Shown here piece by piece: positions 4,912 to 53,452 of a stretch of 64,000 nt of DNA. Positions within the stretch are counted from its first letter, which is position 1. Each line of letters opens with the position of its first letter. The stretch covers positions 1,184,001 through 1,248,000 of the forward strand of contig OZ240248.1 in NCBI GenBank assembly GCA_965198235.1, given 5' to 3'. Origin of the DNA: Candidatus Poribacteria bacterium. GTDB lineage: Bacteria > Poribacteria > WGA-4E > WGA-3G. Both the position numbers and the translations under genes were made by a program. The notes beneath the pieces were generated by a model. It did no database searches and had not been told where the DNA came from. It was given only the letters and a program-made list of their open reading frames with translations.

Positions 4912-5867
4912 AAGTTATCGCACTGCTGATTTTTTCGATTTTGCTTCTAACCGCGCAGCCGTCTATGGCAATCCGAGAGGGCACAACGACCGCTAAGGTC
5001 TTTATCAAACGCTACGCGCAGTCCGGCGATTTTGGTAGACTTGCCCTCTGGCACGAAGCCGCCGCAGAATGTCTCACGCGCATCTCTGTTCCGATGAACG
5101 AGATTGCACACGCTTATTATATACGGCACGGATACGAGCAGTGGGCAGCACGCGCTGAAAAAGAGGCGAGTGAGATTCAGAAACAGCACCAATATCACCT
5201 CACTCGCGCCGAGATTGCTTGGCAAAAATTTGTGGGAGGGGTGTTTTTGCTTGGGTGTTTCCCTAGTAACCCCGATGCTTTTTCGGTGCTGGATGCTGAA
5301 CGCCGAAATATCGAAAAATTTATCGCAACGTGGCTACCGCGCTACCCAAATCGGTTTTACGAATTTGGTATCTATCCCACCTTTTTCAGGAAACAGCGGG
5401 AGTTGGCAGAGCAGGAGGGGAGTTACGCCAAAGTCTTGCGTCTCGAAGCAGATGCCGCGGAGATGTGTGCCGCGCAGTATCAACAAATTCCAATCGTCCA
5501 TGGACTTAAGCGTTATGAAAAATTTCGGGATGCCTATCTCCGACATGCAATACACCTTCGCGAACTCGCAAAGCAAAATCCAATGACGTTACCACCAGCG
5601 ATAGACAAAGGCAAACAGATATTGGGTTCATTGAAAACTCAGAGGCTCCCTTCTCAGCAAAAAGCAGACGCTGTCATTCAGATCGCAAAATCGGATGCGC
5701 GAGTGAAAACAACTTTAGTCGGTCAAAACGGAGTTCACGCATATCCGTCATTTCAAGGGTTCGCGTGGATAGTGAGTTTCTCGAATCACAGTCGCGGGAA
5801 CCTTGCTACTGCAGTTATTGATGGTAAAACTGCCACGGTGTTGAATGTATTTTCCCCTGTGAAATAG
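4908..5867 (+). CDS. Hypothetical exported helical protein carrying an in-frame repeat insertion
   Basis: Signal peptide; ATGA overlap with the upstream stop; residues VGGVFLLGCFPSNPD are encoded by a REP plus an insert at 5232-5276. Confidence 0.7.
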   Translation: MKVIALLIFSILLLTAQPSMAIREGTTTAKVFIKRYAQSGDFGRLALWHEAAAECLTRISVPMNEIAHAYYIRHGYEQWAARAEKEASEIQKQHQYHLTRAEIAWQKFVGGVFLLGCFPSNPDAFSVLDAERRNIEKFIATWLPRYPNRFYEFGIYPTFFRKQRELAEQEGSYAKVLRLEADAAEMCAAQYQQIPIVHGLKRYEKFRDAYLRHAIHLRELAKQNPMTLPPAIDKGKQILGSLKTQRLPSQQKADAVIQIAKSDARVKTTLVGQNGVHAYPSFQGFAWIVSFSNHSRGNLATAVIDGKTATVLNVFSPVK

Positions 5868-6089
5868 GTAGGCGAGGTTTGTAACCTCGCCGGGCTTCCG
5901 TTCAATATCTCACTGTAGGAGGGATCTCCGAATCCCGACATCTGATCGCTGCCTCCACGCTGGCGGGGCTTCCGAACCTCACCTCTTTCAATCCTGTCGA
6001 TCCTGTGAATTGTGATTCTGACAATTAAAACCCTACACGCTCTATTAATGATAACTGAAACCGAAAACTATAGTGCCTCGTTTTTTGGG

Positions 6090-6118
6090 TTGACAATAGT
6101 TTCTAACTATGAAATAAT
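6090..6118 (+). promoter_or_regulatory. sigma70-like promoter
   Basis: TTGACA-17 nt-AATAAT; a very similar copy lies at 7681-7709. Confidence 0.6.
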
Positions 6119-6313
6119 GGGCAACGATTAATTTTTCACATCAAAACGTTGTCTTAAAGTGCTTGGTCTCTAAAGCGGTTTTAGGGTATCAATAGGAGCT
6201 TAATGCAAAATTTGCTCTCTCTGACGACAACGAATCTGGTTTAAGGGCGATTTTTTTAATTGACCCGCCTGAACGTTTCATATGGAAATAGTTAAGAATA
6301 AAGGAGATTCAAC

Positions 6314-7486
6314 ATGAACGTAAGAAGGATCATAACATTCGCGTTTGTATTCGCGATTGTTGCTTTGACTGTCGGGCTTTCCGGTTGCGAAAAGATCGCT
6401 CCGATGGTGCCTGACGACAAAACGACAATGCCTGAAATGATGGATGGAGAGATTCCCATTGGTGTCGCCGTAGCACTGACAGGGGAATACGCCGAACCGT
6501 ATGGGCTCCCAATGCAACGTGGTCTTGACTTGGCAAGAGAAGATATTAATATGCTCGGCGGTCCAAGCCTCACGTTCGTCCCTGTGGACGCTCAAAGCAC
6601 TGTGGAGGGCGGGATTGCAGCTGTCGAGGAATTGGTGAATCAAGGCGTACCTGCCATCGTCGGGATTGGTATCTCAACACACCTCGAACAGGCTTTTCCG
6701 ATCGCACAAGAGAATGGGGTGGTCGCTTTTAGCCCGATCTCCTCCGCTTCGGGTTTGAGCGCACTTGGGGATTATATCTTCCGCACCGGTCTCACTGTAA
6801 GTGTACTCAATTCGAATGGTGCGATGGTGGCTCACGAGCAACTTGGCTATAAAAAAGCGGCACTGATATATGATGCCGCGGATACCTACTCCACAAGTAG
6901 CAACGAGGCATTTGAGAAAACGCTCGAGGCGATCGGTGTTGAGATTCTGACGGTGGAAACCTTCCAAACCGGCGATACCGATTTTTCTGCGCAACTCACC
7001 AATATAATGGGTATGGTGCCTGATACCCTCTTTATCTCTGCTCTGGTACCGGAGATGATTCAGATTATCACTCAGGCGCGATCACCGGAAATCGGTATCC
7101 CCGATGCTGTTCGCCTTATTGTTCCTGATTTAACTGCGAAAGAGATCCAAGAAGTGGGCGACGCTGCCGAAGGGGCGATAACTTTTTCTGGGTGGTTTGG
7201 TATGGCTGACACACCCGGAAACCAAGCCTTCGTTCAGAACTATGAAGCGGAATACGGTATTGAACCTGGACCGTGGGCGGCACAGGCGTATGCGACCCTC
7301 CATATTCTCGCTAATGCGATTATGAATGCGCAATCGACAGATTCTGCTGCGATTCGGGATGCCCTGGTGCAGACGATGGATTTCTCCACGATTTTAGGCG
7401 ATTTCTCTTTCGACCCCGACGGCGAGGCGGTATATGACCCGATTGTGTTTATCGTCAAGGACGGCGAACTTCAGCTCTTTGAGTAA
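6314..7486 (+). CDS. Branched-chain amino acid-type ABC substrate-binding lipoprotein (LivJ/K family)
   Basis: Lipobox LSGC; IGVAVALTG..A.YG, YIFRT, GDTDFSAQLT, A.AY, G.FSFD..GE. No permease genes adjacent. Confidence 0.9.
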   Translation: MNVRRIITFAFVFAIVALTVGLSGCEKIAPMVPDDKTTMPEMMDGEIPIGVAVALTGEYAEPYGLPMQRGLDLAREDINMLGGPSLTFVPVDAQSTVEGGIAAVEELVNQGVPAIVGIGISTHLEQAFPIAQENGVVAFSPISSASGLSALGDYIFRTGLTVSVLNSNGAMVAHEQLGYKKAALIYDAADTYSTSSNEAFEKTLEAIGVEILTVETFQTGDTDFSAQLTNIMGMVPDTLFISALVPEMIQIITQARSPEIGIPDAVRLIVPDLTAKEIQEVGDAAEGAITFSGWFGMADTPGNQAFVQNYEAEYGIEPGPWAAQAYATLHILANAIMNAQSTDSAAIRDALVQTMDFSTILGDFSFDPDGEAVYDPIVFIVKDGELQLFE

Positions 7487-7512
7487 CCCCCACCGTTGGA
7501 TGGACATAACCG

Positions 7513-7556
7513 GAGCCTGTCATCAGCCATTCACTGATGGCAGGCTCTTTCATTTT
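7513..7556 (+). terminator. Intrinsic terminator
   Basis: GAGCCTGTCATCAG/CTGATGGCAGGCTC stem followed by TTTCATTTT. Confidence 0.75.
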
Positions 7557-7680
7557 ATAGTCAAGCCCGAAAATATGTAGACAGTTGTTCAGCGAGCGAA
7601 CCCCCACACCTCGCTTCGTCCCCAACCATTCCAATTTGAAGCATAGGGGCTTGGCGTGAAGACTGATAAAATTTTTGGAG

Positions 7681-7709
7681 TTGACAATAACATCCAACTA
7701 TGAAATAAT
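7681..7709 (+). promoter_or_regulatory. sigma70-like promoter of the S8 protease gene
   Basis: TTGACA-17 nt-AATAAT. Confidence 0.6.
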
Positions 7710-7768
7710 AAGCAGGAGGTGAGTTCTTCACGCCGAGACAGCCGATCGCTAACACGCCGATAGCCATT

Positions 7769-10700
7769 ATGAAATACTTAAGAATTTTATTCATAGGCAT
7801 CCTGCTTTTAAGTGTAGTCTGCACCGAATCTGCTCCAGAGAACTTGCCATTCGCGGCCATCGCTTCCCAAATCACGCCCGGTGAGTTGCTAATCCGTTTG
7901 ACGCCTGATGCTGCATCGGATGTCGAGCGGTTGCACGCGAACGCTCCAATCTCCATCTTGCACGTCCAGCATAAGGTTGAGTCCTTACACCCGCTGTTTC
8001 CGTACCTCGCGCGCCCATCACTGAATCCTAACCTGAAGCGTATCTATCTGTTAAGATTTGCCCCTGATGCACCTCTCGAGGATCTCAAGGCTGTCTATGA
8101 ACAGAGTCCACTCATTGAGGCTGTCGAGTATAACTACCTCCGTCCAACGCTTGCAGACACGGTCGTTCCCAATGATCCGATGTATCCTGAACAGTGGAGC
8201 CTACCGCTGATGAAGTTACCGCAGGCGTGGGCAATCGAAAAAGGCGACAGGAACGTTGTAATCGCCATTATTGATTCCGGGATCGATTATAGGCACGATG
8301 ATTTAGCACCCAAGGCGTGGATAAACCCGGGCGAGATCCCTGAAAACGGATTAGACGATGATGGCAACGGTTACGTCGATGATGTTTATGGTTGGGATTT
8401 TACCGATGCACCTAATTTACAAGCAGAGGGTGATTACCTTGAAGGCGATAACGAACCGATTGATGAAAAAGGACACGGCACGCACGTCGCTGGTATCGCC
8501 GGTGCTATGCCTGATAACGGGATCGGGATCGCCGGAGTCGCGTGGGAATGTCCCCTCATGGCAATACGCGCTGGACTCTCACTCGGTGGGAGTTCCCGAA
8601 TGCAGGATGATGACTCCGCCGCAGCGATGGTCTATGCGGTTGACAATGGCGCAAGCGTTGTCAACATGAGTTGGGGTAGTGAGCGTCGCTCTTTCGTTAT
8701 TCAGGACGCAATTGATTATGCTTATGCACGGGGTGCCATATTGGTTGCCGCTGCTGGCAATTCTCAGAAACCTGCCGCAATTTTTCCCGCGGGCTATCGG
8801 AAAGTCATTGCTGTCGCATCTACTGAACAGAATCAACAACGATTTTACCAATCTAATTTCGGCGCGTCTGTAGACATCGGTGCTCCCGGCAACGTAATTC
8901 TCAGCACACAGATTAATAACCAATATCGACTCCTCACGGGTACGTCGATGGCGTCGCCACACGTGGCTGGCGTTGCAGCGTTAATCCTCGCCAAACGTCC
9001 CGCGCTGACGCATGAAGAGGTACGACACATACTCATTAGCACCGCTGATCCTGTCTATCAAGAGGATAGCGATGCAGTGGATGAGAGATTTGTAGGAGCG
9101 GGTACTGTCAATGCCGAACGCGCACTCTTCGCAAGCGGCGCATTGCAGGCACGTATCCTCGCGCCTGAAACCAATAGCGGCGGCGCAGATTCAATTACCG
9201 TCGTCGGGACCGCAGGCGGCTATAAATTCCACGCTTGGCAGCTCAGTTATGGCGAATCTACAGTCCCAATCGAGTTTACGCCTTTTACACAATCTTCCAT
9301 CACACAGAAAATCGATGAAACGTTGGCTGTTTGGGATACCACAACGGTTCCAGAGGGGATTTACACCGTCCGTTTAACAACAACAGCCACGGATGGGCAA
9401 CAGATGCACGACCAGGTCGTGTTGAGTGTAGACCGGACACCCCCTCAAATTATCTCCCTTACCGCAACGGACACACTTTACGGCGAGCGACCCCTTACAA
9501 TTTTTACATGGGCAACGGATGATGTCACCCAGAATACACTCTATTACCGGCGAAAGGGAAGTCTCGCTCCTTTTGCCCCTATTGAGACAACCAATCTCGG
9601 AGTAGAGCATTTCCTATTTTTAGGTTTGGAGCGCGGAACTTACCAGTTTTTTGTTGAAGCAGAGAATACGACAAACCTCAAGACGAGAGAGGATAACGGC
9701 GGAGCGTCTTATACGACTGACATTGTTGCCGGATATATCTCGCCAAGCGGATTCACTGAAAAATCTCTTGATATTCCACCGCTCCACATCGCGAGCGTCA
9801 CCGCAGACTTCGACAGAGACGGTCAGCTTGAGATCGTCGGGAGTCCGTTGTCCTCGGAAACTCTCGATGCCGAGTTGCAGGCTGCTATCCTCGCGGTCTA
9901 TGAACGTCTCCCAAGCGGAAGATATGAATTGGCACATACCCTTGAGAGTGTGGAGGGGCTCTCTAATCTCGAAAAATTCGTTACGTGGACGGTAGATGAC
10001 ACTGATAACGACGGTTTGCTCGAAATACTGGCTACCGACGATGCGAGAACCTTCCTCATTGAGAGTCTTATACCGCGTGGGTACCCACACCAGATCATCT
10101 GGGAAACCCCATTTCTCTCCGGTGGCACGATCGCTGATATGGATGGTGATGGACAAAAGGAAATTATCGGCGCCGATAACAACAACGACCGACTCCTCAT
10201 TTTTGAATACGACAATGCCACAAGGACCTATGTTGAGAGGGCTATCTTGATTAACGAATCCCCCGGCTCTAATGTATTCGCCCAACGCTTCGCTATTAAC
10301 GATTTTGATGGTGATGGAAGCATGGAACTCGTAGCGGCGGATAGCGAAGGAGATCTTTTCGTTTATGAATCTACCTCTATCCGCAACACCTTCCGCCTTG
10401 AATGGCAAACGCAACTTCCACTTAAGGACATCACGCAACTCACGGCAGGGGATCTCACCGGTGATGGCGTGCCTGAGTTTGTTGTTGGTGGTTTACTATC
10501 GCTACCCGACAACCCTTCGGGACCACTAATCTGGAAGTTTTTCGTCTTTACGCACACGTCACGGGGATACGCGTTGCTCTCAGACGGAGCGCGTAATGCG
10601 ACTGTCGCGATCGCACCGCACCGGCGAAATGGGAACAGTCTCGCAATCGCAGACTTAGAAGGTGATGGTCACAATAAGTTGGTCATCGCTACGTATCCGA

Positions 10701-12060: not shown

Positions 12061-12069
12061 GTTAAAAAA

Positions 12070-13074
12070 ATGGATAATTTTATTCTCATCGCAAACCCCA
12101 TTTCCGGTAAAGGCAACGCGAAAAACGTTGCTGAACAGGCTTATGCTGCCCTTACCGAATCTGGAGCTCAGGGACAATTGATGTTCACTTCGGCATCCGG
12201 CGATGCCAAACGTTTCGCGCAGGAAGCCATCTCTGATGGAATTCGATCCATGATTGCTTGCGGTGGCGATGGGACGCTCCACGAAGTTGTTAACGGTATC
12301 GAGACGGCTCCAGATGTAACCTTAGGTGTTCTTCCGTGTGGTCGCGGCAACGATTTTGCAGCGGCAATCGGTGTGCCGCTGAAACCTGAAGCCGCAATCG
12401 CAACCCTCTTATCTGGCACCCCTATCCGTGTAGATTTAGGATGTTGCTATCAGAATAGCAGTCAGCAGTCAGTTGTTAATCCAAATGATGTAGCCCGTAA
12501 TGAAATGGAGGGCGGATCTACGGAAAGGTGCTTCAATGTCCAAACCCCACTGACCGAACCGCAAGGAAAAATTAAAAAATATTTCATCACCATTGCCACC
12601 TGCGGTTACGATACGGAAGTGAGTCGCCGTGCGGCGAAAGGAACACCGCTGTTTGCAGGCACTGCCTCCTACGCTTACGCCGCGGTGGAGACACTTTTCT
12701 ACTACGAACCGCCGTTTGTGCGTCTTGAGGGCGACTTCGGTGTCCACGAGGGACCGCTCCTTCTCGCTGCGACAGGCATCACAAATCGATATGGCGGTGG
12801 ATTTCAGATTGTACCGAACGCTCGCGTCGACGATGGGCTTTTCGATGTCTGTATTATCCGACCGGTGTCCTCTCTAACGGTGTTACGGCTCATGGTGACA
12901 CTCTTCTGGGGTGGACATGTTTCGCATCCTGCCGTATCCATGCACCAGACCCGCACTTTAACAATTGAGACCGACACACCCATGCTGTTGTATGCCGATG
13001 GCGAGCCGATGTGCGAAACCCCTGCCACAATTGAGATAATTAAAGAGGGACTCGCTGTAATGGCACCTCGTTGA
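12070..13074 (+). CDS. Diacylglycerol kinase family (YegS/BmrU) lipid kinase with in-frame repeat insertion
   Basis: NP.SG, GGDGTLHEVVNG, P.GRGNDFA, YGGG, DDGLFDV, ADGE; about 43 extra repeat-derived residues between DLG and YF. Confidence 0.92.
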   Translation: MDNFILIANPISGKGNAKNVAEQAYAALTESGAQGQLMFTSASGDAKRFAQEAISDGIRSMIACGGDGTLHEVVNGIETAPDVTLGVLPCGRGNDFAAAIGVPLKPEAAIATLLSGTPIRVDLGCCYQNSSQQSVVNPNDVARNEMEGGSTERCFNVQTPLTEPQGKIKKYFITIATCGYDTEVSRRAAKGTPLFAGTASYAYAAVETLFYYEPPFVRLEGDFGVHEGPLLLAATGITNRYGGGFQIVPNARVDDGLFDVCIIRPVSSLTVLRLMVTLFWGGHVSHPAVSMHQTRTLTIETDTPMLLYADGEPMCETPATIEIIKEGLAVMAPR

Positions 13075-13279
13075 TGCTCCCTACTCCCTTGCAAACGCTC
13101 CGGCGACTGGGTTTGTTGATGGCAATCGGCAATCGGTGGTCAGCAGTCAGTAGTTTGCTGTGAGAATCAATCCGCCTCTCCCTGCTGGCGAGGTGTTTTG
13201 CTTGGGGTTTTTGCTTGGGGTTTTTGATAGGGTGTTTCTGTGGATTTCTGCGGATTTCCTCTAGTAACCTCGCCTCTTT

Positions 13280-15064
13280 TTAAGCGTCCTCAGGATACAT
13301 TTCCTCAATCGCATCCCCGTATCGCGCTATGATAACGTTGCGCTTTAACTTTAGCGTGGGTGTCATCTCATCCGCTTCTTGAGAAAATTCCTTATCGAGC
13401 AGCGTGAACCGTCGTACCTGTTCAAAGTCCGCGAAATCGGTTAAACGACTCCGGATTTCGCCTTGAATGAATTGTTGCACCTCGCGCGTCTCAAGCAGTG
13501 TCGCAAGCTCATCCGTCGCAACGTTATTCTCCGCCCCCCACGCCTTGAGTGCATCAAAATTCGGAACAATCAATGCAGCGAGATTTTTGCGTTCGTTTCC
13601 CACCAGCATAATCTGGTTAATAAAGGGACTTTGCACCAACACGCTTTCTATCGGTTGCGGTGCAACGTTTTTACCGTTGGAGAGCACAATGATGTTCTTC
13701 TTCCGATCAGTAATCTTAACGAACCCGTCCTCATCAATGATGCCGATGTCACCCGTATGAAACCAACCCTCTCCATCGATAACCTCTGCTGTCGCGGATT
13801 CGTTATTGAAATAGCCCTTCATGACGTGTGGACCACGGGTTAAAATTTCACCATCTTCAGCGATTTGTACCTCCACTCCGGGGACAGGCACGCCAACGGT
13901 TCCGAACCTCCATTGTGCTGAATGGTTCATGCTAATGACGGGCGAGGTCTCCGTTAAGCCGTACCCCTCCAAAATCAGTATCCCCGCCGCGTGGAAAAAT
14001 TCGGCGATTGATTGGGGTAACGCTGCGCCACCAGAGACGAAAAAGCGTAGCCGGCCACCCGTCGCCGCCTTCAATTTCGCAAAGACCAGTTTGTCCGCGA
14101 TGTTCTGCTGTAATTGCAAAATTGCAGACGGCTTTTTCCCCTTTTGAATCGCTGAACTGACGGATGAACCGACTGAGACACCCCAGTGGAAAATCTTCTG
14201 TTTGAGCGACGAACCTTCCTGCACGGCACGCAGAATTCTGTCATGCATGGTTTCATAGAGTCGCGGCACACTGAGCATCACTGTCGGAGCGACCTCCCGC
14301 ATATTCTGTGCGACCGTGAACGTACTCTCCGCATAAGCCACCTTCGCACCGGAGAACAATGGCACGTAGTGTCCACCGAGCCGTTCAAATACATGTGATA
14401 ACGGTAGGAACGACAACAACACGTCTGCATCATTGACATCGATAAGCGATTTACACGCCTGTAAATTTGAAATGAAATTCGCATGTGTCAGCATGACACC
14501 CTTCGGATCTCCTGTTGTCCCCGAAGTATAGATAATCGTTGCGATGTCGTCTTCGCTCGCGTAGGAGGGGTTTCTAACCCCGATTCCTTGTTCCTGTCCG
14601 TCCAGTTCACAGACTGCCTCAAATTGGATAACACCCTCTGGGCATTCACCTTCAATCGGGTCAAAGACAATTATCTGTTCAAGCGTCGGGACTTCATCTC
14701 GGATAGCGGTTACCTTCTCCAACTGCCTGCTCGTGGAGACGCAGATAATTTTTGATCCGGAATCTTTTAGGATATAACCGACCTGTGCCGCAGTTAGCGT
14801 TGAGAACATTGGTACGGTTACCGCACCGGCTTTGAGGCTACCGAAATCCGTGATTGTCCATTCGGGGCGGTTCTCGGAGAGAAGCGCGACCCGATCGTCC
14901 TTTTGCACCCCTAAGGCAGTTAACCCTTTACTAAAAGCGTCCACCGATTCGCCGAGTTCAGTGTAAGAGATGTCTTGATAAGTGCCACCTTTCGGTTTAT
15001 GTGCCAATGCCGGTTTACTACCGTAGTGTTGGATTGAATGTTCTAACATGGATATCAGTGTCAT
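13280..15064 (-). CDS. Long-chain fatty acid-CoA ligase (AMP-binding)
   Basis: IIYTSGTTGDPKGVMLTH, SFLPLSH, EGYGLTE, GWFHTGD, DRKK...NGKNVAPQ, TPTLKLKR. Confidence 0.95.
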   Translation of the reverse strand: MTLISMLEHSIQHYGSKPALAHKPKGGTYQDISYTELGESVDAFSKGLTALGVQKDDRVALLSENRPEWTITDFGSLKAGAVTVPMFSTLTAAQVGYILKDSGSKIICVSTSRQLEKVTAIRDEVPTLEQIIVFDPIEGECPEGVIQFEAVCELDGQEQGIGVRNPSYASEDDIATIIYTSGTTGDPKGVMLTHANFISNLQACKSLIDVNDADVLLSFLPLSHVFERLGGHYVPLFSGAKVAYAESTFTVAQNMREVAPTVMLSVPRLYETMHDRILRAVQEGSSLKQKIFHWGVSVGSSVSSAIQKGKKPSAILQLQQNIADKLVFAKLKAATGGRLRFFVSGGAALPQSIAEFFHAAGILILEGYGLTETSPVISMNHSAQWRFGTVGVPVPGVEVQIAEDGEILTRGPHVMKGYFNNESATAEVIDGEGWFHTGDIGIIDEDGFVKITDRKKNIIVLSNGKNVAPQPIESVLVQSPFINQIMLVGNERKNLAALIVPNFDALKAWGAENNVATDELATLLETREVQQFIQGEIRSRLTDFADFEQVRRFTLLDKEFSQEADEMTPTLKLKRNVIIARYGDAIEEMYPEDA

Positions 15065-21252: not shown

Positions 21253-21626
21253 TTTCTCTACTGACACGCTTTGTAAATGCCCATTCGCAAAATTCAACTT
21301 TCTAACTATGGGAATCTGTTAACCATCGAAGAAACACCCAAGCAAAAACACTTGTGTTTTAACATCTATAATGGAGTCGAGTTGATGGTTAAACTGCTCT
21401 ACTACGTTCCTTGCCCCTCCCAGTAACGGGCGGGGACCCCGGTTTTCGGTGAATTCCAACCCGCTCCAGATGCGCAAAGGTTTCTGATTTCACCAGGAAC
21501 CATCGTGAAACGAAATTAGGTTTCCTTAAATGGCATAATTTTGCTTCGCAGTGTCCCGCAAGCCTCTATAGGCTTGCGCAGAATGCTTTACATTTGGAAC
21601 GATGCCCAGGGGCTTATAAATTAAAA

Positions 21627-23069
21627 ATGAAGAAAAGAATTTTTGGGATCGAAACTGAATTTGGATGCATGACGGATGCCGAACGGATTCGTGGCACCTC
21701 TGAAGGTGTTGCGGCACGCGTGCGCGATTATGTCTTCGATGTGTTGGAACTCGGTCTTCGGGACATTCACTACCGAGACTGGGGCGAACCGCCGGGTAAC
21801 GGTGGGTTCCTATTCAACGGGGGTCGTCTCTACATTGATATGGGGCATCTCGAGTACGCTACACCCGAATGTGGCAGACTCTTTGACCTTATCGCCTACG
21901 ATAAAGCTATTGAACATGTCATCAACGGTATCCTTAGGGATACCGGGTTGCCCACGGCTTTCTTCAAAAACAATATTGATCATTTTACAGGTGCAACCTT
22001 TGGATGTCATGAAAACTTCCAAATCAGTCGAGATGTTCCCTTTTACCGTGTTGTCATCCCGACGCTTATGCCCTTCTTCGTTACGCGCCAGATTTACGCA
22101 GGGGCGGGCAGAGTAGGGGCTTATGATGAAATGATTGAATTCGGCAATTTTCACGATGAACTTGGCGAGCAACAATACTATCAAATTTCGCAGCGCGCCG
22201 ATCACATCGTCACTGAAATTTATGAATGGATCCAGTTCAGTCGCGCAATCATCAATACGCGAGACGAACCACTCAGCGATTACACGAAATACCGTCGTCT
22301 CCATCTTCTCGTTGGGGATTCCAATATGTCAGAGTACGCATCCGCCCTGAAGGTAGGCACTACTGCCCTTTTACTCTCTGCTATTGAAACGTTCCACGAG
22401 ATGCATGGCGAAAAATTGCCGCTCCCGGGTTTTGAACTCGCCGATCCGGTCTACGCGATTCGACACATCTCACGCGATAATACCTTCACGTGGCGCGTCG
22501 AACTGAAATCCGGAAAGACTATCTCTGCTATTGATTTGCAGAGAGAGTATCTTAACTTCGTTCAGGCTTTGATTGTCGAACGTGACGAAGAAAGCGAATG
22601 GGTGCTTGCGGCATGGGAGTCTATCCTTGATGAACTCGAAGATGATTGGCTAAATGTTATTGATCGTGTCGATTGGGCCGCCAAAAAATGGCTGCTTGAA
22701 GCTTTCATTGATGAAGAGAAATTAGATTGGGAAGATCCTTGGATTAAAAGTCAAGATTTAGAATATCATAACATCCATACTGAAAGTGGACTCTACTACG
22801 CACTTCAGGAACAGGGGCAGATGCAAAGGGTTGTCACCGATGAACATATTCAGCACGCCGTAGACAACGCACCCCAAGATACCCGGGCAAAAGTTCGGGC
22901 GTTCCTGATGCGTACGCTTACCCAAAACCGAATGCCTTGTATTGTTGATTGGCATCAAATATATGCAGGACATACAGAATATTTTGAGATGAAAGAACCG
23001 TTTGACACCAACATCACGAAGGCGCAAAAATGGATGAAAAGGCTACGGAAGCGACCCGCGCGAACTTGA
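21627..23069 (+). CDS. pafA: Pup/UBact-protein ligase PafA
   Basis: RIFGIETEFG, FLFNGGRLYIDMGHLEYATPEC, FKNNID, GCHEN, SQRADHI, INTRDEP, YRRLH..VGDSNMSE. Confidence 0.92.
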   Translation: MKKRIFGIETEFGCMTDAERIRGTSEGVAARVRDYVFDVLELGLRDIHYRDWGEPPGNGGFLFNGGRLYIDMGHLEYATPECGRLFDLIAYDKAIEHVINGILRDTGLPTAFFKNNIDHFTGATFGCHENFQISRDVPFYRVVIPTLMPFFVTRQIYAGAGRVGAYDEMIEFGNFHDELGEQQYYQISQRADHIVTEIYEWIQFSRAIINTRDEPLSDYTKYRRLHLLVGDSNMSEYASALKVGTTALLLSAIETFHEMHGEKLPLPGFELADPVYAIRHISRDNTFTWRVELKSGKTISAIDLQREYLNFVQALIVERDEESEWVLAAWESILDELEDDWLNVIDRVDWAAKKWLLEAFIDEEKLDWEDPWIKSQDLEYHNIHTESGLYYALQEQGQMQRVVTDEHIQHAVDNAPQDTRAKVRAFLMRTLTQNRMPCIVDWHQIYAGHTEYFEMKEPFDTNITKAQKWMKRLRKRPART

Positions 23070-23270
23070 TTTTTTAATTATGGCCTCTTGGGCTGCGCTC
23101 CACTACGTTTCGCGCAGGTTTCTGGTTAATTCTGTACTGGGTTTGGGAATTTGTGCGTTTTTGGGGATCCCACTACTCGTCTTATCAATCTTCGGTGTCA
23201 AGACCCCATGCTTTAGCTTGTGGGATGTAGACACCGCCCTCTTAAAAAGGACCAAAACGCCATTTTTAAC

Positions 23271-23300
23271 TTGACTTTTTTCGTGAAAAAACGCTATAAT
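23271..23300 (+). promoter_or_regulatory. sigma70-like promoter inside the IS left end
   Basis: TTGACT-18 nt-TATAAT. Confidence 0.7.
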
Positions 23301-23304
23301 GATT

Positions 23305-23386
23305 GTATCAGGTTGGCAGACATTCTCAGCGTTACCACTTGGTAGCGTGTCTGCCTCCCACTGAGAAGGGGATAACCGCCTGATAC
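23305..23386 (+). ncRNA. Putative structured RNA with pseudoknot (C4/CI antisense-like architecture) in the tnpB leader
   Basis: Stems GTATCAGG/CCTGATAC, GGCAGACA/TGTCTGCC, CGTTACC/GGTAGCG, TCCC/GGGA; bulge TTCTCAG is complementary to loop CTGAGAA. Confidence 0.6.
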
Positions 23387-23396
23387 CTGATAATCC

Positions 23397-24621
23397 ATGC
23401 GAAACACGAACCATAAACTTTTTGATGATAAAACTTTGTGTCACTTGCACGATGACCTGAATATCTGTGGCGTTGTCAAGAACCATTTTCTGGCACTCGC
23501 TATGCGATATTACCGCAGGTATGGTAAGGGACTTTCGTATTCCAAAATGTCGAAGCACCTGACGAAACTCAAGAGGCTTGAGAAGTATAAGCACTGGAAT
23601 ATCCCATACTCATGGGCATTACAGAATGTCCTCAAGCGTCTGGCACAAAGTTTCAAAGAAATGAAAACGTTAGGCAGAGGCCACCCTCAATTCAAGTCCT
23701 GCAAGAAACACAAAGGCATGACGTTTCGGGGTGAACAGGTTAAGATTGAAAAAGTTTTGGACGCGCAGAAAAACGAAAGAAACCACCCGACGTATAAAAT
23801 CCGATTGAACGGACGTTGGTATCGTTTTGCATTACACCGTGAGATAAAAGGCGAAATCAGCCAAGTTCAAGTGACAAGGGACGCACTCGGAGACATGTAT
23901 ATCACCTTCACAGAAGATTACTCGGAAGTGATACTCGAACCCAAGACGGGTAAAGCCGAAGGGTTCGATATGGGTATCAAAGACTTCCTGACTGGCAGTG
24001 ACGGCAAACGATATACCTCTCCGATGTTCTATAAACAGAACGCCAAGACATTGGCAGAAGCACAAAAGTCGTATTCCCGAAAGGTGAAAGGGTCTCAGAA
24101 TCAAGAGCGAGAACGCAAAACTGTTGCGCGTATTCATAAGAAGACTGCGAATCAAAGAGCAGACCACCATTGGAAACTCGCAATAGAGTTGTGTCGGCAG
24201 TTTGATATCCTGTTCTTTGAAGTGTTTTTGCTTGGGTGTTTCGCTTCGCGGTATGAAAAAACTTTGGGGTCAACAGGTTTCTGACCTCGCCTTCGGTGAG
24301 TTTATGCAGAAACTCAAACACCAAAGCAAAAAACGTATCCGTTCTGTGCTGAAGGTTGATAAATGGTCGCCGACCACAAAAGCCTGTTCTGTTTGTGGAC
24401 ATAAAAATGATACTCTCACGTTAGCAGATAGAGAATGGCAGTGTCGAAGTTGTCATACACACTTGGACCGAGACCAGAACGCTGCTATCAATATACTTAA
24501 GGAGGGGGTAGCCTCCTTTGGGTTAGGTGTCGTAAGACCTATCGTTTTGTTCAACAAAATCGTAGGCTGCTCCGTTGAATCGCACAGTCCGATTCTGAAT
24601 TCCACAAGCCTTTCGCGTTAG
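23397..24621 (+). pseudogene. tnpB: TnpB RNA-guided nuclease, frameshifted at 24222-24243
   Basis: RuvC-I GFDMG and RuvC-II FFE in frame 1; CSVC/CRSC zinc finger and DRDQNAAINI in the next frame; the frameshift is caused by a foreign insert. Confidence 0.88.
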
Positions 24622-24675
24622 ATTGCGGAAGCCCCATGCTTTAGCTTGGGGGTCTATCACCAAAGGAGAAAGACC

Positions 24676-30850: not shown

Positions 30851-30923
30851 GGGGGTGTAGCTCAGCTGGGAGAGCAACTGCTTTGCACGCAGTAGGTCAG
30901 CGGTTCAACTCCGCTCATCTCCA
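30851..30923 (+). tRNA. tRNA-Ala (TGC)
   Basis: GGGGGTG/CATCTCC acceptor stem with G3:U70; ACTGC-TTTGCAC-GCAGT anticodon arm; GGTTCAACTCC T-arm; CCA not encoded. Confidence 0.95.
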
Positions 30924-31008
30924 TCGCCTATAAGCGTAATACGCTATAAATAGGCATTGTTCTTTGACAATTGTATATAGAGGGTAAATCGGTAGAAAAA
31001 ATTATGAT

Positions 31009-33993
<2,985 letters not shown>

Positions 33994-34132
33994 TTCTTTT
34001 CTTCTACCGACCCCTCACACATATACAATTGTCAAATATTCTTGTAACGGCTCAGCAACATCAGCAGACTCTGGCTTTAAACAGCCTCTAAAGCAGCCAC
34101 GAGCACGCTAACCCTGAGCCATACAAAGAACT

Positions 34133-34251
34133 TTCCGGTGGCTATAGCGAAGGGGACCCACCCGTACCCATCCCGAACACGGTAGTTAAGCCCTTCAGCG
34201 CTGATGATACTTCGGGGGCGACCCCGCGGGAAAGTAGGTCGCTGCCGGGAA
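34133..34251 (+). rRNA. rrf: 5S rRNA
   Basis: TTCCGGTGGC...CCCATCCCGAACAC..AGTTAAGCC...GAAAGTAGGTCGCTGCCGGGAA. Confidence 0.95.
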
Positions 34252-46676: not shown

Positions 46677-46893
46677 CAAAGTTTTTCGGACCGGAAACCT
46701 CGCCTTAAGAGGCGAGGCGGAAAGTCCCTCTCCGTTTTTTACTAAACTTTTTTTAGAAAATTCCGTTAGGGTGGGTAGCACCTGACGAAAAGAACCTATC
46801 TATGTCATGCAAACTGTCAATCTTCGGAAACCTTCAGCAAGAAGTTTTCGCTCAAAGAACTTCTCTCTTTCTGATGGCTGACTGCTATTCCCG

Positions 46894-48816: not shown

Positions 48817-48883
48817 GATTTTCCTCTCGTTTCGTTCGTTTTCAATTATCAGTTAAAGACAATAACCGATAAACTTGTCAAAT

Positions 48884-49813
48884 TTACCTTGTGAGGGCAT
48901 ATGCAACGACGTTCATCCCCTGTTCAAATGCCCAATCCCGCTGTTCCGCACCACCAGGCTCACACGGTCTACCTTCCCACGCGCAATTGAGGTCACTCGG
49001 ACAGAAGTAGACAATCACGCGGTCGTCGTCCATAATTGCCTCGTCATAGTCGGAGATGTCAGGGATGCGTTTATCACCGCCGAGGTATTCATCGTGCTGA
49101 AAGAGCGTCCGATAAATCGGATGACTCATCTCCAGCCGTTCAAAATTCTTTTCCGGATAGACCTGCCGCATCATCTCATAGATATGCGGACGCAAACCGC
49201 CGCGATAACCGTTAAGGCGTGCATCACAGTCTTCGACGTGAAGAAAGCCACCACGTTCAAAATAATCTCTCAACTTTCGGATCTGTTCAGGAGAAAGCCG
49301 AATCCCGGTATGTCCTGTCATATAGAGGAATGGATAGGCGAATAATCCTTCGTCATCAATGTCAACATATTGCGGATGCTCACGTACCTCAACATCAATT
49401 GTCGTATATTTAGCAAGTTCCTGAGTGAACTTCAGATCCGATTGCCAGTAATAGTGATTGACAATGTTCGTCCACCAATCGCCACCGGGATACTTGAGTC
49501 GCACAAACGTGAATTTCTCACCCGTTGGATTCATCTCAGGATAGTGGTGTTCAATTACCCCATATCGTCCGTAGTGAAAATCCCCTGCTGCGTCATAAGG
49601 GAGATATTCTCGGAACCTCCATTGGGCATGTGCAGGCAGAATCAGCTTACCCGCGGCGAGCGCAGAGGCAGCAAGTCCAACGGAGCCTTTAAAAAAGGAG
49701 CGTCGCGACAGTCTTTTTGCCGGTTTCGATTCCACGCTGGATATAAGTTCCCGGTATTCGTTACCAGCATCCGATTTCTTTCGAGGTTCGGGGTGTCTAT
49801 TGTTGCTTGACAT
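48884..49813 (-). CDS. DUF4159 domain protein with Tat signal
   Basis: SRRSFFK; RLKY.GGDW, YPFLYMTGH, LR.Y...GGFL..DD, HPIY, DL.CAW, G.N...YALT; GGAGG RBS before ATG 49813. Confidence 0.82.
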   Translation of the reverse strand: MSSNNRHPEPRKKSDAGNEYRELISSVESKPAKRLSRRSFFKGSVGLAASALAAGKLILPAHAQWRFREYLPYDAAGDFHYGRYGVIEHHYPEMNPTGEKFTFVRLKYPGGDWWTNIVNHYYWQSDLKFTQELAKYTTIDVEVREHPQYVDIDDEGLFAYPFLYMTGHTGIRLSPEQIRKLRDYFERGGFLHVEDCDARLNGYRGGLRPHIYEMMRQVYPEKNFERLEMSHPIYRTLFQHDEYLGGDKRIPDISDYDEAIMDDDRVIVYFCPSDLNCAWEGRPCEPGGAEQRDWAFEQGMNVVAYALTR

Positions 49814-49917
49814 GACCTTTCCTCCTGTCCCGATTTCTATTGTAGCCAACCTGTCTTTTCTTCTGCTATCCACTAACAACGGTTTATTGTGCTGACATTA
49901 TTTTACATTATTATAAC

Positions 49918-51342
49918 CTAAAAGCGCGAAAAAATCAAGATCGCGTCCGAAATTGCGCGTCCCCGTTGCCTCGGCATCGAACGTATCCGCCGGTTACCGC
50001 GGGTGATCTTTGTGTTCTTTTCTACTCGTGCCTTTTTCCCTTCCGGTTTATCACGCGACTTATCAGACGCAGCCTCTTTCTGTTTGGCGCTCACAACTTC
50101 ATCTCGGACAACTAACATTGATGAAGTGCCGCCGTCAAGATTAAGCGCATCCGTCGCGCCCCATTCCAGAAACAGTTCCGCGAGCCGTGGCAGCATTACA
50201 CCGCGTCGGACCCCTGCTTCTGTTGCTGTTATCGTCACGAAAAGGAGGGTGCCATCCGCCTTTTTACCGACTGCTGTCCGTGGATGCCAAAAACTGTGAA
50301 AAGCACGATCAAAGCCCTCTTGTTCGTAAGATTTCGTTGAAGATGCGACTCCATCCTGCAGTAGTAACGGACCACCGCCGACAATATGTGTGAAACTTGC
50401 CCACAAATCGCTGTCGCCGACGCGCTCAGGGATGATTGTCTCACGAATCTGAACCGCATCGCCTTCTGCGGTGTGGGTTAAAAGATCCTCGCGTCTTTTA
50501 CCACTTGCTGACAAAATATAACCATCTGTCGGGATGCGCGAACTCCCTTGTCCGTTGTGGATGCCGACGACCTCACCATTTCTCACAACGGCTTCTACCC
50601 CATCGGGCATTGTCAAGGTCACGACGTGAAAATGCGGGCGGTAAATTACGAATTCGTTTCTGCCACGGTTCCGATTCATACCGTCAATTGGCAACGTCCC
50701 CCCACTCGGTAGAACGAGTTCCTGCCGCAGTGCTATCCGGTCAATGGACGCTTCGATTTTTCCATCAACCGTTCGGAGTCCGATCACCGCTCTGCCCTGT
50801 TCCGGTTCGCTTATCCATTCACCATCAATCTTCAACGCACCGACCGACTCGCCACGGAACGTACCCACCATCTCAAAGAAGCCACCATTTATCGCAGCGA
50901 GTGCCTTGTGCCGCCGCGCAAGCGACACCAATGTTTCAGTCCCAATCCCTGCACTCAGCGCACGATATGGACGGATGTCCACAGCATCTGGAGACACCTC
51001 AAGAATGTTCGTCAATACGCCGTTATCTTGTATCTGCCGGTGCACAACTCCCCGAGCAACCGATTTTGTCACATCCGTCCGCTCACGATCCGCAAAGGAA
51101 CGAAAATAATCGGTTATTTTGCTGAACTGAACCGTCTGTCCCAACTGAATACCGATGCCGAGGATCAGCAGAAAGCCAATTATTGTCCATGTGCGTGGGT
51201 AGCGTCTGATGAAACGGAAGCACCGCCGTCCTAAATAGGTAATGTCAAACACTTTTTTAACTATTGGGTTTCTGAGCTGCCCTCCGCTACGCTTACGGGC
51301 AGGTTTTTGATTAATTCGAGAAAGTTTCAAAAACCATAGCAC
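49918..51342 (-). CDS. Phosphodiester glycosidase (NAGPA) family protein
   Basis: AAINGGFF, GGGPLL, HPRTAVG, A.NLDGGTSS; the first ~30 aa are repeat-derived, so the true start is probably ~51250. Confidence 0.85.
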   Translation of the reverse strand: MLWFLKLSRINQKPARKRSGGQLRNPIVKKVFDITYLGRRCFRFIRRYPRTWTIIGFLLILGIGIQLGQTVQFSKITDYFRSFADRERTDVTKSVARGVVHRQIQDNGVLTNILEVSPDAVDIRPYRALSAGIGTETLVSLARRHKALAAINGGFFEMVGTFRGESVGALKIDGEWISEPEQGRAVIGLRTVDGKIEASIDRIALRQELVLPSGGTLPIDGMNRNRGRNEFVIYRPHFHVVTLTMPDGVEAVVRNGEVVGIHNGQGSSRIPTDGYILSASGKRREDLLTHTAEGDAVQIRETIIPERVGDSDLWASFTHIVGGGPLLLQDGVASSTKSYEQEGFDRAFHSFWHPRTAVGKKADGTLLFVTITATEAGVRRGVMLPRLAELFLEWGATDALNLDGGTSSMLVVRDEVVSAKQKEAASDKSRDKPEGKKARVEKNTKITRGNRRIRSMPRQRGRAISDAILIFSRF

Positions 51343-51399
51343 GTAACGAAGTGGAGTGCGGATTTAAGGAACGCACGCAAAAGTCTAAACGCACGAGGT

Positions 51400-52803
51400 T
51401 TAACCGCAAGGTAAATTAAAAATCCGTTCCTCCCATTCATCGCATGTTGCGTGGGTACGCCGCACCGAAGCACCGATATAATTCGTCGGATCTTGGAGTG
51501 CTTCACGCTGCGATTCCGTCAACTTGTCGAGGAATGGACGAAACGTTTCATCTTCCCACAATAACGCCGTCAAACTCTTTCCGGTCTGATGCACCTGTCC
51601 TATCAACTTCCGGGTGTGATCATACGCATCGGGAAACCCGTAATACGCCATCAGCAGATAAATGGGTTCTGCGATCGTATCCTCTGCACTCAGAGCGAGG
51701 TTGCGCCGCATATTGTCCGCTTTGACATCCATCTCCTCCAATGCACGCCGAAGCCGATAGATCGCGTAATCGAACGCCGTGAACAGTTCCGTCAAGAAGC
51801 GGCTTGATGCCGAATTCGTCAAATCGCGTTGATGTTCTAAAATGCTATCCATAAAGACGGTCTGCATACGCGGCACGAACGCCTTCCACAAACTTTTGAT
51901 GTTCTCGTACGTTTCTGGATTCACTTTGTGCGGCATCGTCGATGAGCCTACCAACTGCGGATTATACTTTCTGCCGACCTCAGCGATTTCAGTCCTATAG
52001 AGGTGCCGCATATCGTCTGCGAAGTTCGCAAGCACTGTATATGCCGCCGTAATCTGATACGCCAGATCCGAAATGAACTCTGGTTCCACACACTGCGTTG
52101 ACGTGTGTGTATCGGACGGTTTCAAGCCGAGTAGTGCGAGAAAATCCGCCTCGATCTGCTCTGGATGTTCATGAATCAGCGTGAGTCCATTGAACGCGCC
52201 GACTGCCCCTGAAAATTGCCCACGGAGGTTTTGTCCCGCTTTGTGAATCTCTTCAATTCGGGTACCGAGGCGACTCACGTAAAGTGCCAACGCATAGCCG
52301 AACGTTGTCGGCTCCGCGTGTTGTCCGTGTGTCCTGCCGATTTGCACCGTCCCTGCATGCTCGCGCGCCAGTGCAATCAATTGCTGTTCCAGGACAACCA
52401 GATCAGGAATAATGACGTTTTCTGTGAGTGCTTTAAACCGCAATGCAGTAGCGGTATCTAAAACGTCCGCGGAGGTCGCAAACAGGTGGACATAAGGGCG
52501 CGCTTCCGGGCTAATCTTCCGCCGAATCACATTGACGAGTGAGCGGATATTGTGCCGAATGCGAGACTGCTCCTCATAAACCTCTTCCGCCGTTACCAGA
52601 TCCACTGCCTCTTCTACTTCATCAGCGATCGCGGAAGTGCAGACCCCGTAGTTTGCCAAAGTGCGTACCAACGCCGCCTCCACCTTCGCCTGATATGTGA
52701 CATATCCTGCCTCAGAGACATAGGGTAGCAACCGTTTCATAAAATCGGGATCACCACCGTAGTACCTAAAATCCAGTGGACTGACGGCTTCATAAAGTTC
52801 CAT
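51400..52803 (-). CDS. purB: Adenylosuccinate lyase
   Basis: SPLDFRY, HLFATSAD..DTA, GRTHGQHA.PTT.G, GSSTMPHKVNP...E, HQRDLTNS. Confidence 0.88.
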   Translation of the reverse strand: MELYEAVSPLDFRYYGGDPDFMKRLLPYVSEAGYVTYQAKVEAALVRTLANYGVCTSAIADEVEEAVDLVTAEEVYEEQSRIRHNIRSLVNVIRRKISPEARPYVHLFATSADVLDTATALRFKALTENVIIPDLVVLEQQLIALAREHAGTVQIGRTHGQHAEPTTFGYALALYVSRLGTRIEEIHKAGQNLRGQFSGAVGAFNGLTLIHEHPEQIEADFLALLGLKPSDTHTSTQCVEPEFISDLAYQITAAYTVLANFADDMRHLYRTEIAEVGRKYNPQLVGSSTMPHKVNPETYENIKSLWKAFVPRMQTVFMDSILEHQRDLTNSASSRFLTELFTAFDYAIYRLRRALEEMDVKADNMRRNLALSAEDTIAEPIYLLMAYYGFPDAYDHTRKLIGQVHQTGKSLTALLWEDETFRPFLDKLTESQREALQDPTNYIGASVRRTHATCDEWEERIFNLPCG

Positions 52804-53452
52804 AAAATGTCTTCTCCGTTAGAGCGGAGCAAACTCCACTCTTTCATCTTTGTTTTCTTACCAATTATACACGCGATTGAGGCGAATGTAAAGCGTTTGT
52901 TTTCCTGTAGGCAGGGCTATTTAGTTTTCCATTTTTTGCGACATTTTTGGATAACCAAACCCGGTAGGAGCGGTTTGATAAGGTTTCAATAAATATTTCG
53001 GTAATTCTACCCCAAAAATCATTGTAGGGGGTTTTTGCTTGGGGTGTTTTTGCTTGGGTATTTCTGCATATTGATAGGTGTTTTTGCTGTAGGAGCGAGT
53101 TGTACTCGCGACGTTCATCGACCGCTGACTGCTGATTGCCAACGGTAGGAGGGATCTCCAAATCCCGACTTATCCCATACAATCGGCAGGTGGCAAGGTT
53201 CTAACCTCGCTTACCATAATCCCCTTCCTTTGCTGGCGAGGTTTCTAACCTCGCTACCCACAACCCTCCTTTCTTCGCTGGCGAGGTTTCCCAACCTCGC
53301 CTCGTCCCTAACGCAACCCAAGATAAACGCAGTAAGGGGAAAAACACAACCGGTTGCTTCCCTATACTTACGAGAATCAAAATGTGAAAAATAATTTCAC
53401 AATTTAGCACTTTATGCATCACATATCACGCTTTAGATTCTCCTCCTTGTTT

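Follow-up and report, generated by a model that had tools for sequence, protein, structure and literature searches.

What makes one short string turn up again and again, in copies of different length, along a single stretch of a symbiont chromosome? We addressed this question in a 64-kb window (the whole stretch of DNA analysed, G000:C1:1184001-1248000) of G000, the 5.17-Mb genome of a Candidatus Poribacteria sponge symbiont (2 contigs, 48% G+C, 96.3% completeness). An earlier note on this DNA had listed five such strings, described them as foreign and as lying at unrelated sites, and proposed that a polymerase realigning on a fixed short template writes them into DNA breaks; all five were found at their coordinates, with the sequences described. 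They are copies of a 21-nt insertion module that we named element A. Element A is a genus-specific repeat family; it gains sites after speciation, including sites in coding genes and in other small repeats, and its resident copies grow into arrays by ordered reiteration of half-units. Positions with the prefix C1 refer below to the genome, all others to the window.

The 12-base core of the element, TTTTTGCTTGGG, has seven exact matches in the window and nine at no more than one mismatch, while 100 dinucleotide-preserving shuffles of the window gave a mean of 0.45 matches and none of them reached nine. Genome-wide collection of the core, a check that the earlier note had proposed, yielded 260 exact matches against ~0.7 expected from base composition. 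A GATAGGG variant of the core adds 113 matches, and merging the exact core and variant matches gave 245 clusters, 242 of them chromosomal. The recurrence is therefore real, and what did not stand is the description of five unrelated sites, which belong to a genome- and genus-wide family; their hosts are often other small repeats (repetitive extragenic palindrome-like, or REP-like, hairpins; repeats resembling miniature inverted-repeat transposable elements, or MITEs; and an IS605-type tnpB gene) rather than unrelated sequence. Two of the matches at one mismatch, 3273-3284 and 24321-24332 (minus strand), come without a recognisable right half and may be chance or decayed copies.

Extending the core by TGTTTC gives an 18-mer, which had more than 112 loci in an exact-match scan across prokaryotes with each species represented by one genome. 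Among the 80 loci listed, 75 lie in records titled Candidatus or uncultured Poribacteria, and the other five in three metagenome-assembled genomes (MAGs) titled 'uncultured bacterium', one Methylophilus MAG and one Pyrinomonadales MAG. In a phylum sample of 151 genomes the 18-mer is present in 53/56 genomes of the genus to which the window belongs, with 1-96 copies each (the highest count, 96, is that of G000 and of its relative G081), in three of the 38 sister-genus genomes (1-3 copies), in one of the ten of family f2 and in none of the 41 others sampled; the reversed 18-mer, taken as a control, was found in none of the 151. The string is not foreign: element A is the commonest small repeat of the genus. 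Viral carriers were considered and rejected, the 18-mer lying on only two viral contigs. A cyanobacterial origin, which the heptamer-like repeats and the likeness to small dispersed repeats had suggested, was rejected too, nearly all records with the 18-mer being Poribacteria.

The same distribution bears on the possibility that the strings are an artefact of assembly or stem from an adapter or primer, one of the outcomes that the earlier note held to be fatal to its claim. This possibility can be dismissed with near certainty, because the 18-mer spans more than 112 public loci in many independent assemblies and 53/56 genus genomes (58 of the 151 in the phylum sample, with the reversed control at zero) and because the copies within open reading frames (ORFs) keep the frame; the flanks are, moreover, ordered and context-specific. 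The only oddity on the side of an artefact is a run of four Ts in the first unit of the copy at 13193-13264, at position 13195, where the family has five and the contigs of four sequencing runs carry the extra T at partial depth; this difference may stem from a homopolymer error of the assembly, from strain variation or from reads that belong to other copies. In Logan, 20 runs from 8 studies contain parts of the window, and we compared the contigs of four of them (X1, X2, X4 and X8). The sites were neither directly confirmed nor shown to be polymorphic there, as these contigs break at repeats and no listed contig bridges them; one X8 contig omits 13076-13285 and has 16 other letters in place.

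The basic element A is 21 nt long and reads (G)TG-TTTTTG(CTT/ATA)GGG-TGTTTC, with YYYA usually next. To describe the copies we used four tokens: L, the left unit, is G(TG)TTTTTG(CTT or ATA)GGG (13-15 nt); R, the right unit, is two bases plus TTTC, then nothing, CC or CTC, then TGCG (10-13 nt); H is TATTG(CTT or ATA)GGG (11 nt), an L that is shortened at its start and comes after R; and T is a terminal xxTTTC. Parsed in this way, plain L+T makes up 113 of the 245 clusters and a lone L another 17 (mostly chance-like or interrupted), and the remainder are arrays. The copies fall into ~63 flank groups and 69 non-redundant contexts. Across these 69 contexts the left junction is precise, with R-G-(T/G)-G (R here a purine) followed by TTTTT, a G at -3 in 65 and a G at -1 in 66, and after the final TTTC on the right there is merely a Y Y Y A R G tendency. 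The lack of a constant right end reported by the earlier note was thus confirmed, and so was the absence of terminal inverted repeats: the copies have no inverted ends, the 72-nt array at 13193-13264 has no fold of its own (z = 0.06 on the + strand and -0.53 on the - strand) and a one-unit copy folds only into a weak GGG/CCC stem of 3+3 bp (-2.8 kcal/mol).

Copy length varies, as had been described, and the longest array, at C1:1325902, reaches 197 nt. The longer copies reiterate a small set of words in a largely kept order, as stutter would give. LT, LLRRT, LLRT and LLLRT are the dominant patterns, tandem LR-LR (written R-H) being seen in a minority only. In the unit transition matrix the path runs from a GTG-type L through G.CTT and G.ATA to R(TG), R(GA) and the end, with a side branch from GTG.CTT through R(TA) to H, and forward steps far exceed backward ones (G.CTT to G.ATA 17 times, the reverse four). 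The inner L is also linked to the adjacent R: when its prefix is GTG an R starting with TA comes next in 22/27 cases, and when its prefix is G a TG comes next in 40/51 (Fisher 5e-7). The two variants of neighbouring L units follow one another about at random (CTT-CTT 40, CTT-ATA 38, ATA-CTT 20, ATA-ATA 17). Pure slippage was therefore rejected, as neighbours are not preferentially alike and the same units recur at 245 loci.

A strict nested-insertion (bracket) grammar was rejected as the sole process too. Opening units (L, H) and closing units (R, T) are equally many in 38 of the 103 multi-unit arrays; their numbers differ by one in 50 arrays and by more in 15, so that 65 are unbalanced, and in the 57 arrays made of a single L run and a single R run the two counts are correlated at r = 0.28. 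Three near-identical paralogous contexts of a GTAG-tagged family do differ by a balanced step: two hold one unit and one holds two, the difference being one L plus one R (+23 nt).

Comparison with other genomes of the genus separates the two halves of the element. L-L junctions number 62 in G000, 26 in G018, 22 in G081, and five each in G006 and G014; the R-R junction of the G000 type, found 122 times in G000, is rarer elsewhere (13 in G081, nine each in G018 and G014, four in G006). A strict two-level array pattern had no match in the element-bearing G006, G014, G018 and G081 or in the element-free G073; the looser L-L and R-R patterns did match in genomes where the strict pattern failed. At 16 loci of G018 picked by their L-L junction (L133-L148), the L runs use the same L units as G000, ordered CTT then ATA, and the right units are mostly CCCAATTTC, CTCAAATTTC, CCTTTC and CTCAATTTC, in fixed order, while the right unit of G000 is TGCGGATTTC; four G018 loci picked by their R-R junction have the G000-type right unit. 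The right-unit repertoire is thus largely species-specific and the left half is common across species. For the linkage of L and R in other genomes, 102/132 parsed clusters were LT, at loci chosen by a pattern favouring one-unit copies.

That these copies are true insertions was established by aligning them to empty sites, as the earlier note had advised. Site 1, a one-unit copy (L + TGTTTC + CCTAG) at 5241..5266 on the + strand, occupies the loop of a short hairpin-like repeat (GGGG/CCCC) inside the ORF at 4908-5867; it is in frame, adds GVFLLGCFP to the translation and leaves the ORF open. At ten of the 11 orthologous loci in relatives the element is missing, and most of them keep the small hairpin GGAGGGGTTTGTAACCCC intact. 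One relative that is not the closest, G014, holds at the same point (locus L123) a two-level array whose right junction differs. Counted by hand on the alignment, the net gain at site 1 is +21 nt in G000 and +36 nt in G014, both in frame. A comparable case is found at C1:4768746, where a 60-nt array reads GNPQRKHPIKNPKQKPQAKTP within a 708-residue ORF: G004 is empty there (GTAG, TTTC, GGTTTC), G006 has a decayed one-unit copy and G000 a pristine array with three L units. A decayed copy in one species and a pristine array in another at the same point suggest renewal from outside the locus. Two further cases read through in the same way, and about a dozen copies in all lie deep in long ORFs that remain open.

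Site 4, a one-unit copy at 24222..24243 (+), splits an IS605-type tnpB gene (23397..24621, +) into two ORFs, 23397-24284 and 24202-24621, which carry an OrfB_IS605 (9.9e-16) and a Cas12f1-like TNB (1e-19) domain. Of 12 aligned paralogs of this gene, ten read GAA-GAYYTSAAC-CTTCG and are empty, and two read GAA-GTGTTTTTGCTTGGGTGTTTCG-CTTCG and are filled; at site 4, 22 bases stand in place of nine target bases (or 21 in place of eight, the G at the left junction being ambiguous). In a tree each of the two filled copies groups with empty ones rather than with the other (supports 1.0 and 0.944), so either two insertions took place at one point or a short conversion tract carried one of them over.

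Queries made of joined flanks gave a junction-spanning genomic match for 67/245 clusters, some of these being self-matches and the rest paralogous empty repeats. We read the junction anatomy by eye in 14 filled/empty contexts. None of the 14 shows a target duplication; one to three target bases are missing, and eight to nine in tnpB. A one-unit copy lengthens its site by 21 nt in most contexts, by 23 nt in one context, c9, and by 13 nt in tnpB, and at the junctions target and element have one to three bases in common (GT on the left side, and G or AG on the right side). The loss of host bases at the junctions was thus confirmed at empty orthologous and paralogous sites, and the view that the strings are not a MITE was borne out as well, since they lack inverted ends and target duplication and do not fold on their own.

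Many copies of element A lie within other small repeats, among them GTAG-tagged REP-like hairpins, the MITE-like repeat of site 3 and the terminator-like hairpins of site 2. Site 2 is a 72-nt array, LLLRRR, at 13193..13264 (+) that fills the loop between the arms of an inverted repeat; convergent ORFs lie on either side, 12070-13074 (+) and 13280-15064 (-). Its host hairpin (13187..13274) has 8-bp arms, GGCGAGGT at 13187-13194 and ACCTCGCC at 13267-13274, and a T-run behind, resembling an intrinsic terminator or a REP; in the empty paralogous hairpins of this family the loop is 7-8 nt. Just upstream of the hairpin lies a heptamer-like tandem run (13124-13156, ggcaatc ggcaatc ... ggtcagc agtcagt), and similar runs flank other copies. 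Site 3, an intergenic one-unit copy on the - strand (21331..21351), lies within a MITE-like repeat whose arms, TTAACCATC and GATGGTTAA, are at 21319-21327 and 21384-21392; each query copy of this repeat family has 7-8 empty paralogous matches (CACGAGTTGATGG), and the filled ones hold one to three L units. Site 5, at 53029..53087 (+), is an array of L L R H and a truncated L (TGTTTTTGC), parsed at C1:1237030 and intergenic between the ORFs 51400-52803 and 53453-54259.

These hosts raise the possibility that there is no insertion process at all, and that a few seedings in REP, MITE and insertion sequence (IS) families were followed by hitch-hiking with their hosts and by slipped-strand array change of the variable-number tandem repeat (VNTR) type. 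Many copies do lie in amplified host families (the largest flank groups have 52, 39, 14 and 14 copies), one MITE-like family carries different array lengths at the same point, and a deletion between TTTC and GGG words would explain the one-unit form without replaced bases, which is our own reading of the paralogs. Against it stand 45 contexts that occur once only, insertions in unique genes whose orthologs lack them, the two non-sister tnpB copies, neighbouring L units that are not preferentially alike, and the decayed G006 copy facing the pristine three-level G000 array at one site. We consider this account quite improbable.

A stem of at least 4 bp abuts 27% of the copies, compared with 14% in shuffled flank pairs, and one of at least 6 bp abuts 11%, compared with 1.8% at shifted positions. 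Hairpin loops are thus favoured, yet they are not the rule. In a crude set of ORFs that we called ourselves, covering 86% of the genome and with many spurious 'inside' calls, 173 of the 242 chromosomal clusters are intergenic, in ~14% of the genome. We found no bias by assembly strand (136 + and 106 -) and, by the same ORF calls, none relative to genes (70 co-directional, 56 opposite); the replication arms are poorly defined because GC skew is weak.

The intergenic enrichment, together with an 18-mer that is identical in 53/56 genomes of the genus, could speak for a functional site, bound by a nucleoid or regulatory protein or acting as an RNA signal, and kept by selection. Such a role, which would be compatible with the other explanations, seems unlikely to us: individual sites are not conserved between species, orientation relative to genes is unbiased, copies break tnpB and sit in frame in proteins, and the window sites have no Rfam match. 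Three genomes of the genus, besides, lack the 18-mer; in two of them, the closed genomes G073 and G117, L units are at background counts, and the third, G089, has three exact L units.

How, then, are new copies made? Base loss, bases shared at both junctions and a fixed start with a loose end are the signature of primed templated copying, and not of cut-and-paste transposition or a conservative recombinase. We tentatively prefer, while giving it less than an even chance, the reading that new copies arise by non-conservative primed DNA-templated copying, with genomic DNA copies of the element serving as template via template switching. Genomic copies would be the most economical template because the genome has no reverse transcriptase (RT) match, the unit repertoire drifts between species and variants are mixed within arrays. 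In this scheme, the new copies would come from copy-choice or template switching while DNA is replicated or gaps are repaired. A 3' end halted in G-rich sequence, in many cases a hairpin's 5' arm (G-rich arms would be natural stall points), would anneal by one to three bases to another copy of the element and copy it, and might realign backwards on the repeated GGG and TTTC words, which would appear as stutter. The copied strand would then rejoin its own strand through a few bases of homology, and deletion between repeated GGG/TTTC words would give contraction. Neither a reverse transcriptase nor a telomerase-like RNA would be needed. Self-templating and concerted evolution are favoured by L units that are identical in G018 and G000 while the right units differ.

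Several points weigh against copying from genomic templates. The steps are drawn from junction anatomy, none having been observed; the paralogous empty sites among the 14 contexts are not true ancestors; and the Logan contigs, which do not bridge the sites, give no evidence from reads of current activity. Targeting of hairpin loops had to be rejected as a general rule, since only a minority of copies show it. The two filled tnpB paralogs share identical junctions, including the loss of eight to nine bases, which looks deterministic and would suit a site-specific enzyme, unless the insert was carried over in a short tract of gene conversion. Species whose orthologous genes share only 66-83% identity have the same left 18 bases, and generic repair by itself leaves unexplained why one sequence has been copied hundreds of times. 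Lastly, the loose coupling of L and R counts means that pair addition, unit slippage and conversion may be mixed.

A dedicated enzyme acting in trans, be it a site-specific recombinase, an HUH or other nuclease-ligase or a novel polymerase, would meet some of these points, and we regard it as a serious though doubtful alternative. It would recognise the left end and a short G-rich target, and arrays would form by self-nesting, as the element carries its own target; self-nesting is reported for the small dispersed repeats of cyanobacteria. The very uniform left junction, the identical junctions in the two non-sister tnpB paralogs and the independent use of one hairpin point in G000 and G014 all agree with such an enzyme, and so do the joint addition of L and R in the one- to two-unit step of the GTAG family (+23 nt), the linkage of the inner L to the adjacent R, and a sequence conserved across species while individual sites turn over quickly. 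Element B, a second small element described below, doubles both of its halves and has a diverged outer copy paired with a canonical inner one, which fits nesting as well. What a dedicated enzyme does not account for readily is the absence of a constant right end, of inverted ends and of target duplication, the loss of target bases, the frequent imbalance of L and R, the G018 L runs without matching R runs of the G000 type, and the ordered CTT-then-ATA units, which random self-nesting would not be expected to give.

The sole candidate enzyme tested across genomes also failed to track the element. G000 has six Y1 (IS200/RAYT-type) genes, but among 61 genus genomes the Y1_Tnp counts are uncorrelated with the element counts: the element-free G073 has five matches and the element-free G117 none, while G081, with its 96 copies, has two weak ones. 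The flanks of the six Y1 genes hold a single copy of element A (in L113). A Y1 transposase was accordingly rejected as the driver.

The earlier note had invoked telomerase, defence-associated RTs or a group II-like RT with end-joining, any of which would realign on one short RNA template and write it into breaks. Reiteration that preserves order and resembles stutter, a precise start with a variable end, and the loss of target bases are indeed what such an enzyme would leave, and the idea of a templated, stuttering insertion is supported. A single fixed RNA template fits poorly, given CTT and ATA variants mixed inside arrays and right units that are species-specific while the left units are common; moreover, the dominant order is an L run and then an R run, while a telomerase-like product would be head-to-tail (LR)n. 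Searches of the 96.3%-complete, two-contig genome for RVT_1 (PF00078), Ku (PF02735) and ATP-dependent ligase (PF01068) gave zero matches each; the RVT_1 control matched in 3/14 genomes, and very divergent RTs could escape the model. No locus combining the motif with a polymerase gene was found near the six Y1 genes, the only part of the genome screened for one. A telomerase-like enzyme, or an RT with end-joining, is therefore unsupported, and we judge it very improbable.

There is also a bolder formulation, which we put forward with considerable doubt: element A might be a template parasite, a ~21-nt piece of non-coding mobile DNA without a transposase whose G- and T-run words capture stalled or broken 3' ends for the cell's own polymerases, or else a genus-specific stuttering polymerase or nuclease-ligase might write it. 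Stuttered arrays would then be the trace of repeated realignment, and element B and the arrays made of R units alone would be included. If this were true, no smaller self-propagating DNA would be known outside Nostocaceae, and the riddle of the small dispersed repeats (SDRs) found there could be approached in a second, independent system.

The SDRs are, by analogy, the closest counterpart, and element A may be a new variant of that poorly understood kind. Reportedly, Elhai and co-workers described SDR1-8 of Nostocaceae in 2008 as non-coding repeats of ~21-27 nt with hundreds of dispersed copies, which are said to occur inside other small repeats and inside their own copies, giving complex arrays. 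Compared by description and not by sequence, element A is alike in its 21-nt unit, its 260 core matches and its lack of an encoded protein, in a mobility shown by filled and empty orthologous and paralogous sites, and in its confinement to one coherent lineage (53/56 genomes in the genus, 3/38 in the sister genus, 1/10 in family f2 and 0/41 others in the phylum sample). As to nesting, it lies inside REP-like, MITE-like and IS hosts, with 65/103 arrays unbalanced, the unit order largely fixed and one step between paralogs that adds L together with R. It differs in belonging to another phylum, in its ordered runs of half-units rather than whole-element nesting alone, in the loss of target bases and in arrays without secondary structure of their own. 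For mobile repeats as small as this, the SDRs of Nostocaceae are the one described precedent that we know of. According to papers that cite them, SDR5 inserts precisely within the HIP1 octamer (PMC4390886), SDRs were not found beyond Nostocaceae (PMC5861425), and in 2011 the origin of SDRs still counted among the open questions (Bertels and Rainey 2011, PMC3116915). Our literature searches on Poribacteria repeats, as judged by the titles and abstracts listed, and on small dispersed repeats, which led mainly to work on organelle genomes, turned up no description of element A.

Other known systems share single features with element A. REPs and REPINs (paired REPs) with their REP-associated tyrosine transposases (RAYT, Y1) are a further system for comparison (PMC3116915; Nunvar et al. 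2013, PMC3733652). Like them, element A is short, abundant and mostly intergenic, and many of its hosts are GTAG-tagged hairpins; it is, however, non-palindromic and sits inside such hairpins, and Y1 counts do not follow it. With MITEs it shares being non-autonomous, short and present or absent at orthologous sites, but it is 21 nt long as against more than 100 nt, has neither inverted ends nor target duplication, and has a variable right end. The bacterial interspersed mosaic elements (BIMEs) of E. coli and the BOX elements of pneumococcus are mosaic intergenic repeats with a variable number of modules. Element A resembles them in its modular build, with internal units variable in number and fixed in order, and differs in that its units are of 9-15 nt and that the family also enters coding genes and inserts de novo at unique sites. 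VNTRs differ in turn, as neighbouring units of element A are not preferentially identical and the same units are found at 245 loci.

Among repair processes, microhomology-mediated break-induced replication and fork stalling with template switching (MMBIR/FoSTeS), polymerase-theta end joining and quasipalindrome template switching are sporadic events that copy arbitrary sequence. The absence of duplication, the small loss, the one to three shared bases and the stuttered, re-primed copies (in the 14 contexts read by eye) recall such templated insertions at microhomology; in element A, by contrast, one family has been copied hundreds of times and kept across a genus, and no polymerase of this kind was identified in our analysis. 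Telomerase and the repeat-synthesising defence RTs reiterate synthesis from a short template, and element A differs from their output in a product that is not head-to-tail, in the absence of an RT match and in variants that argue against one fixed template. The palindromic elements of Rickettsia, which are longer than 100 nt, form tolerated in-frame insertions in protein-coding genes; copies of element A likewise lie in frame in proteins, being far shorter and non-palindromic.

With more than 50 genomes at 0-96 copies of the 18-mer, relatives free of the element and clean filled and empty sites, this genus of an uncultivated sponge-symbiont phylum is well suited to inferring the chemistry of insertion and to looking for a gene responsible for it. 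Annotation is affected as well, because element A adds short K/P/Q-rich or G/V/F/L-rich in-frame peptides, splits tnpB and fills terminator-like hairpins. Short-read contigs end at the repeats of this region, and short-read assemblies of such genomes are thus likely to be fragmented.

Small elements in G000 routinely enter one another at fixed points. Element B, found at 12 loci outside the window (G000:C1:2704938, 895467, 1052294, 2800022, 753187, 3727188 and six more), is ~45 nt long, starts with AATGTAATACAAGG and ends in an 11-bp hairpin (GGATTTAGTCT / AGACTAAATCC). The TTTTTGC of element A stands to its left at 10/12 loci, and at nine of these ten the GG and xxTTTC of element A stand to its right, so that B sits inside A. 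Its 20-nt left part is doubled at five loci, with the 22-nt right part doubled too at three of them, and at one locus the outer copy is diverged while the inner one paired with it is canonical. Element B is thus a second small element with left- and right-unit doubling like that of A, which supports a shared habit. At site 5 a REP-like hairpin (53080-53115, TGTAGGAGCGAG..CTCGCGAC) abuts the truncated L after TTTTTGC, the point at which B enters A. Arrays of R units without any L (TATTTCTGCG, GATTTC) were seen in hairpin loops at C1:2739651, 3580484, 485156 and 3181416, and the two halves of element A can therefore occur apart.

The tnpB gene broken at site 4 belongs to an IS605-type, tnpB-only element (~23199-24660) that carries an imperfect hairpin, CCCCATGCTTTAGCTTG(G/T)GGG, at both ends and has at least 13 genomic paralogs at 75-82% identity to the window copy. 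The 3' arm of the hairpin has GCTTGGG in common with L, the exact word being present on only two IS ends. The hairpin was considered as a source of the L unit and dropped, with two IS ends bearing GCTTGGG and two GATAGGG hairpins only.

Some further features of the window lie apart from the five sites. Just past the ORF that holds site 1, a short repeat at 5909-5943 has many exact 27-32-nt matches in genomes of the genus and in those of another family (G026), and contigs of several runs join or end there. The Rfam search of the window matched rRNA and tRNA only: a tRNA, 23S rRNA and 5S rRNA lie together at 30851-34250, and 16S rRNA was unmatched anywhere in the 64 kb, so the rRNA genes may be unlinked. 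Finally, the ORF at 21594-23069 encodes a full-length Pup-ligase domain (PF03136, 9.2e-135), a pupylation-type gene that is notable for the phylum.

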